The notes: generated by a model not told the origin, from the letters alone. A stretch of DNA of 64,000 nt from a virus (IMGVR_UViG_3300020581_000009:22611-86610); one strand, 5' to 3'. Shown: positions 7,329 to 26,224, counted from the stretch's first letter. Made by a program: numbers and translations.

Positions 7329-7489
7329 TGTGGTATAATACTTAGTCTGGTCACGAACCTTAACGCGCCGGCAGTGGTAACGCTGCCTGACCGGTCACAA
7401 TGTCAGCTTTCGGGGTAGTGGGCTCCTTTGAATAAGGCAGCGGCGATCGGCCCCTAGCGCCGTGACGCCGGTCCCGGCATACTCGCATC

Positions 7490-7750
7490 ATGCCCGAACC
7501 ACGCCGCAAACGCCCCCGTGATCCCGCCCAGCTCGCCAAACTCATGATCGATATCGCCAGCGGCGAGGTCGAGGATCGCGAGCCGACGCCCGAGGAACAG
7601 GGCAAAAACCCGGCCGCTGTAAAACGTGGTCGGCTAGGTGGCGCCGTTGGTGGCAAGGTGCGCGCAGCCAACCCGACTAAGGGGCGCCGCGTGGAGATTG
7701 CGAAAAAGGCCGCTAAAAGTCGCTGGAAAACCTCGGCTCGTAGTGAGTAG
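7490..7750 (+). CDS. IS-associated small Arg/Lys-rich protein (accessory ORF)
   Basis: RPRDPAQLAKLMIDIASGEVEDREPTPEE...RRVEIAKKAAKSRW; paralog of 23614-23862 in identical position relative to transposase. Confidence 0.55.
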   Translation: MPEPRRKRPRDPAQLAKLMIDIASGEVEDREPTPEEQGKNPAAVKRGRLGGAVGGKVRAANPTKGRRVEIAKKAAKSRWKTSARSE

Positions 7751-7949
7751 CCGCCAATTCAGTCACTTGCTGGCGTGTAATCAATAGGCTGCGCAGTCCC
7801 TGCATCAAAATAAACGGCTGCATCATTGGCTCTACAAAGCGATAACGATATTTTCCATTCGTTCGTGCTCGCCAATCTTCGTCGGTCTGCGGCCGGGTAT
7901 CCGGGACATTCATGATGAAACCGCCTCATTTCTGGCACACTAGAGGCGT

Positions 7950-8901
7950 TTGTCACACACTAAAGCCGAATTAGCAACATTTAATGCAAAAACCGTGTTG
8001 ACACCGGCACTGTTCTCAAGCATAAGGGTGCCTATGAACAGATTGACCCCAGAAGAACGTGCGAAAATCCTCCATCTTCTCTGTGAGGGCAATTCGATCC
8101 GCGCCGTCACCCGGCTAACGGGCGCGAGCAAGAAGGCCGTCACAAAGCTCCTAGTCGACGCCGGCCAAGCCGCCGCCTGGTATCAGGATCGGGTGTTCGT
8201 TAATCTCACCTGCAAAGCGCATCCAGGTCGATGAAATCTGGGCGTTCGTCTATGCCAAGCAAAAGAACGTCCCGACCGCCAAGGCCGCGCCGGCCAATGC
8301 GGGCGACGTGTGGACATGGACCGCGATCGATGCCGATACCAAGCTGATCCCGTCTTGGTTCGTCGGCGGCCGGGACAGTGACGCAGCGATCATCTTCATG
8401 GACGACCTTCGGTCGCGCCTTGCGAACCGCGTCCAACTGACCAGCGATGGCCACAAGGCCTACCTCGAAGCAGTCGAGGGGGCGTTCGGTGGTGACGTTG
8501 ATTACGCGATGCTGGTCAAGCTCTATGGACAGTCATCGGAACTCGCCAAGGGCCGCTACAGTCCCGCTGAATGCATCGGTGCGCGTAAGGAAGCGATCGA
8601 AGGCAATCCTGATCCGGCGCATATCAGCACGTCCTATGCCGAGCGGCAAAACCTGAACGTGCGGATGCATACCCGCCGCTTTACCCGGCTCACGAATGCA
8701 TTCAGCAAGAAGGTCAAGAACCACGCGCATTCCGTGGCCCTGTTCGCGATGTACTACAATTTCGTCCGCATCCATAAGACGCTGCGGACCACGCCGGCAA
8801 TGGCCGCGAAGGTGACCGAGCGGCTTTGGGAAATGGGTGATATCGTGAATGTGCTTGAGGCTTGGGAAGTGTCTACGTCAACCAAAGGAGAAGCAGCATG
8901 A
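7950..8901 (+). pseudogene. IS1/IS1595-like DDE transposase, frameshifted (two ORFs 7950-8234 and 8308-8901)
   Basis: N-terminal HTH part and catalytic part homologous to intact copy 24606-25454; one extra A at tgcaAagcg (~8215) relative to the tgcaagcgc frame of the intact copy. Confidence 0.6.
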
Positions 8902-9140
8902 CAACGGAACAAGAGAAGCTCGGAAGAGAGCGTATGGTCGCACAGCCATTCACCCCAGTTGCGAATCTTGGCAATGATAGCCGCGATTCACGCTCTCTCG
9001 AATACATCGCGTTCTATCTTGGCGAGATCACAAATCATCTTGCTGGGATCGCCGCTCAACTGAACAACAATAGCGTTAATGGAACGAAGATCGCGCTGGA
9101 ATTACAAGGCCTCGCCCAGGTCCTTCAGATGAAGCCATAA
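8898..9140 (+). CDS. hypothetical protein (IS cargo)
   Basis: ATGA overlap with transposase stop, lies inside right IR. Confidence 0.4.
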   Translation: MTTEQEKLGRERMVAQPFTPVANLGNDSRDSRSLEYIAFYLGEITNHLAGIAAQLNNNSVNGTKIALELQGLAQVLQMKP

Positions 9141-9407
9141 AACCAATTTCGATCAGTTCATCATCCGTCACGGAATCCCAGCGCGACAGGACGTCAACCG
9201 CTGTCGCGAGGGGAATCCCGCGCACAAAAAATTCATTCAACGTGGGCTTGGGTCTTGTGTTCATATCCTGCCACAATCAAAGGAGCCCACTACCCAGATA
9301 GGGCATTCAATCTTATGCTTTGGTAACTCGTTGCCGCATGTGTAGCAGTGCGTCTGCTTAGCGGCAATCTCACGATCCATCTGGTCTATGGTATCCACGC
9401 CATCCTC

Positions 9408-9713
9408 CTACGCCGCATCCATCCACACATGGCCGTCGCCACGACACGCACCCTTGACCGACCACGACCGCGTAAACCAATTGTGCCAGTGGCCTAACTT
9501 CCGACGTACTGTCCCGTCAGAATACCGAACCACAAGAACCTGATAGGACTGTAGCCATACCCACCCAACATCATGTGTCAGAATCGGAATGACCGCGACA
9601 CGATACCTCAATCCAACTATCGTGCCAGGAACCTTGTGCATCATCGGCCGCGTCTCGGAGAATATCCGCTGCCGCCGCAAGCCACACACCCAGAACCATG
9701 GCACATGAGACAC
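9408..9713 (-). CDS. hypothetical protein
   Basis: ORF overlapping 9641-9994 in another frame; uncertain which is real. Confidence 0.2.
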   Translation of the reverse strand: MSHVPWFWVCGLRRQRIFSETRPMMHKVPGTIVGLRYRVAVIPILTHDVGWVWLQSYQVLVVRYSDGTVRRKLGHWHNWFTRSWSVKGACRGDGHVWMDAA

Positions 9714-24402: not shown

Positions 24403-24605
24403 TCCCGCCGCCAAGACCCCGGCTGCACTCAGGCCGCGATTACTGGTGCAGTCGGCAGACCGAGCGAGTCGGTCACGGTAGTCCCGGAAGGGCTGCCATC
24501 TAGCATACCGGGGCGTCGCGGTCAATAGCAAAATAAGCAGAGGATTGGAATCCCTATCAAACTGTAAGATTATGCTTGACCGTTCGGGCATGATAGTGCA
24601 TTATC

Positions 24606-25454
24606 GTGTCCATGAACAAGCTCACCCCAGAAAAGCGCGCCCAAGCCCTCCAAATGATGGCAGAAGGCATATCCCTGCGGGCCACCACGCGGTTGACCGG
24701 CATTAGTCGGACCACGCTGCTGAAGCTCCTAGAGGATGCCGGGCAGGCGTTCTCCGAATATCAAGACCGCGCGCTTGTTAACCTGCCGTGCAAGCGCATT
24801 CAGGTCGATGAGGCATGGGCTTTTTGCTATGCAAAGCAAAAGAACGTCCCGACCGCGAAGGCTGCCCCTGACGGTGCCGGCGATATCTGGACATGGGTTG
24901 GCATCGATGCCGACACGAAGCTTGTCGCGTCTTGGTATGTCGGCAATCGCGATAGCGAAGCCGCCATGACGTTCATGGACGATCTGGCCCCAAGGCTTGC
25001 TTCCCGCGTTCAACTCACCAGCGACGGCCACAAGCCCTACCTAGAGGCCGTTGAGGGCGCCTTTGGCGGCGATATCGACTTTGCGGTTTTGGTGAAGATT
25101 TACGGTGCGGCCCCGGAAGGCCAGCGCCGCTACAGCCCGGCCATCTGCACCGGAGCGAAAAAGTATCGCGTCGAAGGAAACCCCGATCCGGCGCATGTCA
25201 GTACGTCCTACGTTGAGCGCCAAAACCTGAATATCAGGATGGGCAATCGTCGCATGACGCGACTCACGAATGCCTTTTCAAAGAAGGCCGAAAATCACGC
25301 GCACATGATGGCGATCTACTTCATGCACTACAATTTTGTGCGTATCCATCAGACCTTGAAGGTCACCCCGGCGATGGCCGCTGGCGTCACGCCCAAGCTT
25401 TGGGAAATGGCCGACTTGGTGAAGGTGCTGGAGGATTGGGAAGCCATTCAATGA
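24606..25454 (+). CDS. IS1/IS1595-superfamily DDE transposase
   Basis: N-terminal HTH; C-terminal YVERQNLNIRMGNRRMTRLTNAFSKKAENH..YNFVRIH resembles IS1 InsB [11 protein letters not shown].S.SFSK. Confidence 0.7.
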   Translation: MSMNKLTPEKRAQALQMMAEGISLRATTRLTGISRTTLLKLLEDAGQAFSEYQDRALVNLPCKRIQVDEAWAFCYAKQKNVPTAKAAPDGAGDIWTWVGIDADTKLVASWYVGNRDSEAAMTFMDDLAPRLASRVQLTSDGHKPYLEAVEGAFGGDIDFAVLVKIYGAAPEGQRRYSPAICTGAKKYRVEGNPDPAHVSTSYVERQNLNIRMGNRRMTRLTNAFSKKAENHAHMMAIYFMHYNFVRIHQTLKVTPAMAAGVTPKLWEMADLVKVLEDWEAIQ

Positions 25455-25600
25455 GCACCAAGACCGAAATCGGATGCTGGGCATTCGCCGCCCCAATTGT
25501 GGTCGCTGGCTGGCTTCTTGGCGTGCTTTTACTCTACGGCATAGTTGTTATCATTTTCCGATATGCGTTCGGCGTCGAATTGTGGAACCCGTTCCATTGA
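25451..25600 (+). CDS. small membrane protein (IS cargo)
   Basis: ATGA overlap with transposase stop; hydrophobic. Confidence 0.35.
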   Translation: MSTKTEIGCWAFAAPIVVAGWLLGVLLLYGIVVIIFRYAFGVELWNPFH

Positions 25601-25615
25601 GCGCCACAACGACAT

Positions 25616-25853
25616 AATGGAGTCCGTTATGGGCCGAAAAACTTCGCTAGTTGACCTAATCGCCACGCAAGAACCAGAAACAACTGCGAAAGGTGAAACC
25701 GTAGTGGTGACAGCGCCTGTAATCGTTGCCGGTAGGCCAGACGCTCCCGGTCAAGTTCGTCTAACACTGACGATTGAACAGGCCGAATATCTGGCAGCTC
25801 AGATTCAACCCGTTCTTCGAATAGCTCGCGGAAATGCTCGGCAAAAGAGATAG
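25616..25853 (+). CDS. hypothetical protein (IS cargo)
   Basis: internal ATG of listed ORF 25545-25853. Confidence 0.3.
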
Positions 25854-25885
25854 TCATGTGAGACTTCGCCTTTCAAACTGTACCA

Positions 25886-26224
25886 CTACCGCATGGAGTT
25901 AGACCGGGAGGCTTGCAAGCGATCCCATTGTCTACTGAACCTCTCTGGCCCCGAGCGCGGACCATGGATTTTCGCTCGGTTTCTCCCATTAGGAGCCGGT
26001 CTCCGTGACCGATAAAGCCTTTGAGGACTTCGACCGTCTAACCCCGTGTCAAGGTCTCCTTCAATGGCTTTAACCGCAAGTGCCACAGAATGTGGGATAG
26101 GCGTCTGCCCGGTCACATATCGCCAGATCGTGACCGGGTCGAGGTGTAATGCGCGGGCGAGAGGCGCTTTCCACTTGCGACCGTAAAGCTTCCGCCCGAT
26201 TCGCTCGAACTCAGTAGGCGTCAT
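25886..26224 (-). CDS. HTH (Cro/CI-like) DNA-binding protein, 3' end altered by IS insertion
   Basis: LARALHLDPVTIWRYVTGQTPIP; stop codon lies 5 bp inside IS right IR. Confidence 0.5.
   Translation of the reverse strand: MTPTEFERIGRKLYGRKWKAPLARALHLDPVTIWRYVTGQTPIPHSVALAVKAIEGDLDTGLDGRSPQRLYRSRRPAPNGRNRAKIHGPRSGPERFSRQWDRLQASRSNSMR

Follow-up and report, generated by a model that had tools for sequence, protein, structure and literature searches.

Two cargo-carrying insertion sequences in a phage genome and the conserved small basic protein gene of their IS1-related clade

Two IR-bounded elements and their transposase

A 64,000-nucleotide stretch of viral DNA (IMGVR_UViG_3300020581_000009:22611-86610, here called the window, with positions counted from its first letter) contains two segments, element A and element B, that are each delimited by terminal inverted repeats (IRs; IRL at the left end and IRR at the right) and carry a small basic open reading frame (ORF) near IRL, a transposase gene and further ORFs (Table 1). 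The best explanation of the data as a whole, which we consider probable, is that A and B both belong to a single large clade of transporter insertion sequences (tIS), that is, insertion sequences (IS) with passenger genes, within the IS1 family. The identity of the element itself is held with high confidence.

The IRs of A are perfect over 17 bp, in agreement with the first-pass annotation of the window, while those of B, which it had located at the same ends with a 17/18 match, are complementary at 20 of 20 positions. GGTAGTG is present at all four ends, giving each the GGnnnTG start typical of IS1. When the window was searched for GGTAGTGN6TTTGA with one mismatch allowed, these four ends were the only occurrences, against 0.21 expected from shuffles. 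The 8-bp direct repeat reported earlier around B was found on both sides of the element; B itself is intact and lies between phage genes. No target-site duplication (TSD) accompanies A, the left flank being GCTTTCGG and the right flank CAGATAGG; three relatives with the IR type of A (loci L010, L011, and L013) have perfect 8-bp TSDs at these termini. An extra A in AAA at 8214-8216 splits the transposase of A into two frames (7950-8234 and 8308-8901), and removal of one A restores a protein with 69.6% identity to that of B. Because of this +1 frameshift and the missing TSD, A is probably dead, though the frameshift may be a sequencing error, as only one assembly spans A. Programmed frameshifting in A was rejected, because the shift needed, at a short AAA, is +1 and not the -1 of IS1, and because the relatives have single ORFs.

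Both elements have the small ORF, the transposase and a stop/start ATGA overlap at the 3' end of the latter (8898-8901 in A and 25451-25454 in B). The proposal of a shared gene order holds to this extent, but not beyond it: the A transposase is split, in B a further ORF of 155 aa (23935-24402) separates the small ORF from the transposase, and the ORFs 3' of the two transposases are mutually unrelated. The latter are cargo, and there is no common third gene. None of the cargo ORFs in the window (155, 49, 74, and 80 aa) had an informative match in family searches. At the DNA level A and B share approximately 71 to 74% identity, over the transposase only; the protein identity of about 70% noted previously applies to the transposases (with A repaired), the small ORFs being 58% identical. 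An antisense ORF of 324 aa (23617-24591, minus strand) runs across both the small ORF and the cargo ORF in B; it is absent from public gene calls and is most likely an artifact of the GC-rich sequence.

The B transposase is a single ORF of 280 aa, as are those of the relatives, with a helix-turn-helix (HTH) at residues 5 to 44 and DDE candidates D68, D140, and E204 (282-aa numbering). It matched Pfam DDE_Tnp_IS1 (PF03400) at 27.0 bits, above the gathering score of 24.1; the catalytic fragment of A reached 23.1 bits, just under that score, and PF03400 matches are precomputed for many relatives. Using BLASTP against InsB of IS1A, TSYVERQNLNIRMGNRRMTRLTNAFSKK was aligned across the ERxNLNxR...FSK block with 38% identity over 40 aa, bearing out the initial reading of an HTH-DDE transposase with an InsB-like signature. 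DDE_Tnp_IS1595 and the NCBIfam IS1595 models gave no match at an E value of ≤0.1 in Pfam and NCBIfam; of the IS1/IS1595 superfamily originally suggested, IS1 was therefore retained and IS1595 was not. Public naming is uniform, with at least 8,000 clusters at 90% identity designated "IS1 family transposase." The 8-bp TSD of B and more than 100 relatives is within the IS1-like range of 8 to 9 bp; that of A is absent. Single-ORF subgroups of IS1 are recognized by ISfinder, which also lists long IS1 members (the ISMhu11 group). The GGTAGTG ends resemble the ISPna2-type end, GGCnnTG, of the ISfinder tables, a point in favor of an IS1595 assignment.

Promoter-like sequences, near the sigma-70-type consensus and with a 17-nt spacer, precede the transposase genes of A and B, and TTGAC is conserved approximately 35 nt upstream of the transposase ATG across 89 elements. 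As the promoter ends 7 nt before the ATG, a leaderless transposase mRNA is implied. A partial IR copy in the IRR orientation (CAAACTGAC) is located approximately 55 nt upstream of the same ATG; in 13 of 87 elements (relatives L001, L096, and L043 among them) this half-site has at least 10 matches out of 13, always at -54 to -58. It may be an autoregulatory site for the transposase or a relic of the joining of two modules. Upstream of the small ORF of B, an extended -10-like sequence, TGnCATAAT, ends 6 nt before the ATG.

Table 1. Coordinates of elements A and B and of their parts in the window
Feature	Position	Strand	Evidence
Element A, 1,881 bp, IS1 family, probably defective	7414..9294	+	IR pair, flanks
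IRL of A, GGTAGTGGGCTCCTTTG	7414..7430	+	
IRR of A, perfect complement of IRL	9278..9294	-	
Small basic accessory ORF of A, 86 aa	7490..7750	+	127 bits against the small-ORF hidden Markov model (HMM); 58% identity to B copy
Promoter-like TTGACA-N17-CATAAG of A, 7 nt ahead of transposase ATG	7998..8033	+	Direct sequence reading; family-wide TTGAC
Transposase gene of A (HTH + DDE), 1-nt insertion in AAA at 8214-8216; 288 aa when repaired	8034..8901	+	
Cargo ORF of A, 80 aa, without family match; start overlaps transposase stop (ATGA)	8898..9140	+	
Left copy of B TSD, GCATGGAG	23541..23548		
Element B, 2,342 bp, intact IS1-family tIS	23549..25890	+	
IRL of B, GGTAGTGGTACAGTTTGAAA	23549..23568	+	20 nt, 100%
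Small basic accessory ORF of B, 82 aa; three predicted helices (12-24, 42-62, 65-80)	23614..23862	+	
Slot-1 cargo ORF of B, 155 aa; weak winged-helix-like matches only	23935..24402	+	
Internal partial IR copy TATCAAACTGTAA, IRR orientation, just upstream of transposase promoter	24555..24567	+	11/13 match to inner IR
Promoter-like TTGACC-N17-CATTAT of B, 7 nt ahead of transposase ATG	24576..24604	+	Direct sequence reading
Transposase of B, 280 aa from MNKL; ORF call starts at GTG 24606	24612..25454	+	
Slot-2 cargo ORF of B, 49 aa, hydrophobic; ATGA overlap with transposase stop	25451..25600	+	
Slot-2 cargo ORF of B, 74 aa when read from ATG (publicly annotated as 96 aa)	25629..25853	+	
IRR of B	25871..25890	-	
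Right copy of B TSD, GCATGGAG	25891..25898		

Relatives of A and B and the gene shared by them

Relatives of the elements were found in plasmids, bacterial genomes and viral contigs. A tblastn search of plasmids with the B transposase returned 19 records bearing the annotation "IS1 family transposase." The same kind of search with the small protein gave no plasmid match, probably owing to the low-complexity filter, so the plasmid copies were reached via the transposase. The element in Mesorhizobium loti plasmid p_1 extends from GGTAGTGGGTCAGTTTGAAA to its perfect complement 3,370 bp away, with CGCTGGTG on both flanks, and a 4,224-bp element in a Hoeflea plasmid is flanked by GATGATTG. Both have, just inside the left end, a basic ORF of approximately 70 to 78 aa with the same motifs as those of A and B, annotated "histone H1" or "hypothetical." A profile built from five transposases identified at least 587 relatives in one-genome-per-species contigs and 105 in IMG/VR; among the matches listed, most were from Alphaproteobacteria, with others from metagenome-assembled genomes of Acidobacteriota, Binatia, Verrucomicrobiota, and Chloroflexota.

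In Alphaproteobacteria, other phyla, plasmids and viral contigs, over 100 independent insertions were delimited that have GGTAGTG..CAGTTTGAA ends, 8-bp TSDs and lengths of 1.3 to 5.6 kb (typically about 3.2 kb), so that the IRs and direct repeats seen in the window do recur as insertion boundaries at unrelated loci. They include 102 transposase-seeded loci in which a GG-initial IR pair (matching at 16 or more of 20 positions) was accompanied by flanking 8-mers identical at seven or more of eight positions. From the 204 ends, an IR consensus of GGTAGTGkcTCAgTTTGAAa was obtained, with positions 1 to 7, 14, and 16 near-invariant, and the 122 distinct TSDs showed a weakly palindromic preference, S-A-A-n-n-T-T-S.

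Of 165 sources searched with an HMM built from five small proteins, 144 had a match in an ORF upstream of the transposase, and with a single exception the two genes shared a strand; in most of the sources lacking a match, the upstream DNA was too short or the transposase was among the most divergent. In the reverse direction, metagenome loci seeded by the small protein and having at least 4 kb of downstream sequence contained the transposase downstream in 29 of 31 cases, and the corresponding figure in IMG/VR was 30 of 48. The small ORF thus accompanies related transposases elsewhere, and its conservation across divergence, asserted in the first-pass annotation, is not due to chance. Of the two outcomes that the first-pass annotation named as refuting its proposal, neither was observed. 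The accompanying statement that A and B do not represent a recent duplication is likewise upheld, as the copies have diverged and unrelated genomes have the same architecture.

The small protein is the product of a real, selected gene. Comparison of the A and B copies gave a dN (nonsynonymous divergence) of 0.36, a dS (synonymous divergence) of 1.18 and a dN/dS of 0.31, and across 674 pairs the median dN/dS was approximately 0.48, indicating purifying selection. Mean identity across the family is 47%, with the protein motifs kept, and divergence of the small protein tracks that of the transposase (Spearman coefficient of 0.39; Mantel test, 0 of 300 permutations). The median length is 78 aa, and 6,821 clusters were counted at 90% identity; at 50% identity there were 10,084 representatives, of a consistent length of about 80 aa. 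The start codon is located from approximately 65 to more than 600 bp from IRL, and the ORF has a fixed position next to IRL and a fixed inward orientation on the transposase strand, unlike the cargo, which is found on either strand. An AlphaFold model predicts the three helices given in Table 1, with a mean predicted local distance difference test score of 77, and the net charge is approximately +10. In the source annotations, the protein is named "histone H1," "RNA-binding protein," or "general stress protein YciG." A relationship to KGG/YciG proteins was rejected, as only one of 44 members matched, at an E value of 4, and comparison with InsA of IS1 showed no similarity. The C-terminal 32 or so residues (GG.K.RA..LTPE.R.EIA.KAA.ARW) recur at the N terminus of P63C-domain proteins (phrog_2384), which are frequent cargo, so this part of the protein is a portable module.

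Since the set of transposase-less elements seeded by the small ORF was biased, a second census was seeded by the IRs only. It yielded 31 further elements with TSDs: 14 had both genes, four had the small ORF without a transposase, six had transposase fragments or a decayed small ORF, and seven had neither gene and resembled MITEs (miniature inverted-repeat transposable elements), with lengths of 200 to 620 bp (plus one of 1,128 bp). Most of the IMG/VR loci that have the small ORF without a transposase are derivatives of 763 to 3,755 bp with the same IRs and perfect 8-bp TSDs. Nonautonomous derivatives in viral contigs include MITEs of 200 to 620 bp with perfect 8-bp TSDs and mini-elements of 760 to 900 bp encoding the small protein alone; such derivatives are present at L370 (6963-7162), L388, L324 (373-662), L432 (5677-6179), L334 (4334-4949), L312 (5549-6311), and L351. 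A divergent subclade of approximately 1.9 kb with the IR GGTAGTGGGCTACTTTGA (L144, 5224-7114; L160, 5246-7112; L163, 5224-7217) is without the IRL-side small ORF; a zinc-ribbon basic ORF that contains the two motifs of the family in permuted order adjoins IRR instead and reads inward.

Cargo and phage setting

Cargo is found in two slots, one between the small ORF and the transposase and the other between the transposase and IRR, with unrelated genes in different copies. The slot-1 gap exceeds 1 kb in 66 of 94 elements, and the slot-2 gap exceeds 300 bp in 45 of 94. The content is hypervariable, as 356 ORFs from 114 elements fell into 242 clusters. Among the 144 largest cargo ORFs there were 23 with HTH_3 and 20 with Peptidase_M78, mostly fused in proteins of approximately 380 aa beside a partner of approximately 150 aa, together with eight P63C proteins, six DNA methylases, five SDH proteases and four STAND NTPases; Panacea, Fic, HNH, and Bro-N were also present, and HigB was found in a representative scan. 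PADLOC assigned 11 cargo ORFs to RmrA (best E value, 3e-191), the Zn-peptidase antitoxin of the RosmerTA defense system, and others to PD-Lambda-2_B, CapP, and restriction-modification methylases.

B, with three ORFs in addition to the small ORF, has the IRs, TSD, single transposase and passengers inside the IRs by which a tIS is defined, and its relatives do likewise. The tIS were defined for the IS1595 family, with its relationship to IS1 (Siguier, Gagnevin & Chandler 2009), and a 2021 review states that "a number of IS families" contain them. Because tIS have been known since 2009, a size above the 0.8 to 1.1 kb that the first-pass annotation gave for classic IS1/IS1595 elements and the possession of cargo are not new in kind.

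The placement of the elements inside a phage genome was borne out by family matches to a terminase large subunit, Erf, a helicase, an exonuclease and head proteins on both sides. Two further contigs, L443 (78,849 bp; ENA k141_1148552) and one of 109,962 bp from JGI, are from the same phage and have B at the same site; independent assembly from no fewer than two other samples yielded this phage, with 100% identity over 20 kb. A search of IMG/VR for the uninterrupted target of B found no match, and the only other contigs with the small protein of B are from the same phage with the same insertion; there is thus no before/after pair for B. IS are generally regarded as rare in phages, which gives interest to the presence of these elements in bona fide phage genomes. 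Element B had no DNA match among cultured phage genomes, and the sole transposase homolog from a protein search of cultured phages was that at an unannotated locus of Brevundimonas jumbo phage vB_BpoS-Gurke (ON529850.1, 174779-175666), which is distant (37% identity, 99% coverage).

Several neighboring genes of the phage were also recorded. An HNH endonuclease gene (23127-23504, minus strand; phrog HNH families, E value of about 1e-14) abuts the left end of B, and a second gene, HNH_3, is located a few kilobases upstream. On the right, a TROVE and vWA Ro60-like protein (26221-27816, minus strand; Pfam, and phrog_850 "RNA-binding protein") adjoins an array of 18 tRNA genes (28253-35846, minus strand). 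No Rfam Y-RNA family was found at gathering score, the gap at 27817-28252, a possible place for a Y-RNA-like partner, lying outside the region examined.

Interpretation, alternatives and comparison with known systems

By analogy with IS1, the transposase of these elements would bind the inner part of the IRs and move the whole IR-to-IR segment by DDE chemistry. Its transcription, as a leaderless mRNA, would start at a promoter of its own and may be autoregulated via the upstream IR-like half-site. The small protein would be the nucleic-acid-binding accessory factor of the element, serving as a regulator or architectural cofactor of transposition or of element expression; it occupies the position of insA without being an InsA homolog and could be a functional counterpart of InsA, or of host IHF at the ends of IS1. 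This role as an element-encoded regulator or cofactor is put forward tentatively, with confidence a little short of even. Still more speculative, and on present evidence unlikely, is the broader proposal that the small protein represents an unrecognized class of transposon cofactor or repressor and forms, with the transposase, the two-gene core of a very large IS1-related clade specialized in the shuttling of defense and toxin-antitoxin (TA) cargo, including into phages. If that were true, mini-elements with the small protein alone could be "regulator-only" parasites, like the repressor-making deletion derivatives of other transposons.

A number of observations weigh against the preferred interpretation. 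The transposase scored 57.1 bits against the NCBIfam equivalog transpos_IS1 (NF033558), for which the cutoff is 100, over profile positions 41 to 168 of 199, and is a distant member of IS1, not an IS1 equivalog; unlike that of IS1, it has no zinc finger at its N terminus (HTH only) and no -1 frameshift. Searches of Pfam, NCBIfam, PDB sequences and, with Foldseek, PDB folds found nothing similar to the small protein, and the grounds on which it would bind DNA are its charge, its position and analogy. The C terminus shared with P63C proteins suggests a generic module rather than a reader specific to the IRs. As MITEs without the small ORF have TSDs, the ORF is not required in cis. The half-site signal is modest, with a mean of 8.1 of 13 against a background of 7.0. 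In addition, the transposase-less elements of the IMG/VR set were ascertained via the small ORF and are biased in that respect, some IMG/VR contigs may contain host DNA, and cargo ORFs were called naively in GC-rich DNA.

The alternative that deserves most attention is that the small ORF is the oldest or stickiest passenger of these elements, with a host- or phage-directed role (nucleoid-associated "histone-like," stress, anti-silencing, or anti-defense) for which carriers keep it, and with none in transposition. We consider it doubtful, even though transposase-less mini-elements retain the small ORF intact, some with nothing else (L312, 763 bp; L351, 904 bp), four of the five transposase-less elements of at least 900 bp in the IR-seeded sample have it, and full-length copies in viral contigs L296, L298, L302, and L178 have no recognizable IRL or transposase nearby. 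The source names and the module common to phage P63C proteins also agree with such a role. However, 143 of 144 cases show one position by IRL and one orientation, a constancy not seen in any other cargo, for which identity, slot and strand all vary; the small protein codiverges with the transposase; and kinship with KGG/YciG proteins is unsupported. Were the left-end segment conserved instead as cis-acting DNA, with subterminal transposase-binding sites and an incidental ORF, its location adjoining IRL, where many transposons have such sites, would be explained. This is very improbable given a dN/dS below 1 with saturated synonymous change, motifs that are kept at a mean identity of only 47%, the variable distance from IRL to the start codon, the transposition of MITEs that lack the segment, and a consistent protein length among the 10,084 cluster representatives.

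Assignment of A and B to already catalogued passenger subgroups of the IS1595 family (ISPna2+ or ISNwi1+) would account for 8-bp TSDs and passenger genes, the family being the one on which tIS were defined, but both traits are shared with IS1-related elements and do not discriminate. With the IS1 models matching and the IS1595 models not, the motif around the third catalytic residue aligning with InsB of IS1, and every public name being IS1, we regard this assignment as improbable. A last alternative, that A and B are phage-internal repeats or the products of a local duplication and not mobile elements, derives from their occurrence in one phage genome and from the absence of a TSD at A. The low DNA identity confined to the transposase speaks against it, and it is refuted by the finding of the same architecture, with different TSDs, in hundreds of unrelated bacterial genomes and plasmids; its probability is accordingly negligible.

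Membership of A and B in a clade of IS1-family tIS thus remains the preferred reading. In the literature searched, ISfinder being outside the search, no description was found of this clade as tIS, of the two-slot organization or of the conserved small protein. The claim of an undescribed lineage is only partly supported: the new feature is the conserved small protein as second core gene, in an IS1-family tIS clade for which no description was found, while the transposase was already named IS1 family and IS with passengers are a known concept. Should the small protein prove to be a true transposition factor, a second accessory protein of a non-InsA type would be added to the IS1 family, along with a large clade as yet untouched by experiment, with at least 8,000 transposase clusters (90% identity) and approximately 10,000 small-protein clusters (50% identity). 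The two slots make the elements a compact natural vehicle for TA and antiphage genes, among them STAND NTPases, methylases and RosmerTA-like pairs, in Alphaproteobacteria of soil and freshwater and elsewhere, and their presence in bona fide phage genomes makes phages one possible route for cargo between hosts. The IR consensus and small-ORF profile provide a simple means to delimit the elements and mine their cargo. These findings are relevant to specialists in mobile DNA and defense islands, the more so if the small protein is a transposition factor.

The closest known system is IS1 itself (Escherichia coli IS1A), with which the elements share a DDE transposase containing the ERxNLNxR...FSK block, GGTnnTG at both ends (GGTGATG in IS1A and GGTAGTG here), a duplication of 8 to 9 bp, and a gene for a small basic protein between IRL and the catalytic ORF. 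IS1, however, is 768 bp with no cargo and produces InsAB' by a -1 frameshift, InsA (zinc finger and HTH) being part of the transposase, whereas here one transposase ORF has its own HTH and promoter, the small protein is unlike InsA, and 0.3 to 3.6 kb of cargo may separate the two genes. The tIS of the IS1595 family (ISPna2+ and ISNwi1+) are IS1-related and similar in their single transposase, IRs, 8-bp TSD and passengers within the IRs; they differ in that the transposase here has no IS1595 model match and in that no report was found of a conserved small second gene as part of the tIS definition. The transposase-less derivatives resemble mobile insertion cassettes and MITEs (IS231-MIC231 of Bacillus cereus), which likewise have the IRs of a family and TSDs, with or without genes, but several derivatives here keep only the small accessory ORF of the family. 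Finally, hypervariable cargo enriched in defense and TA genes at a fixed slot is also a property of Tn7-like transposons (Benler et al. 2021), which are multigene transposition machines of 10 to 100 kb, compared with the elements of 2 to 5 kb with one transposase described here.

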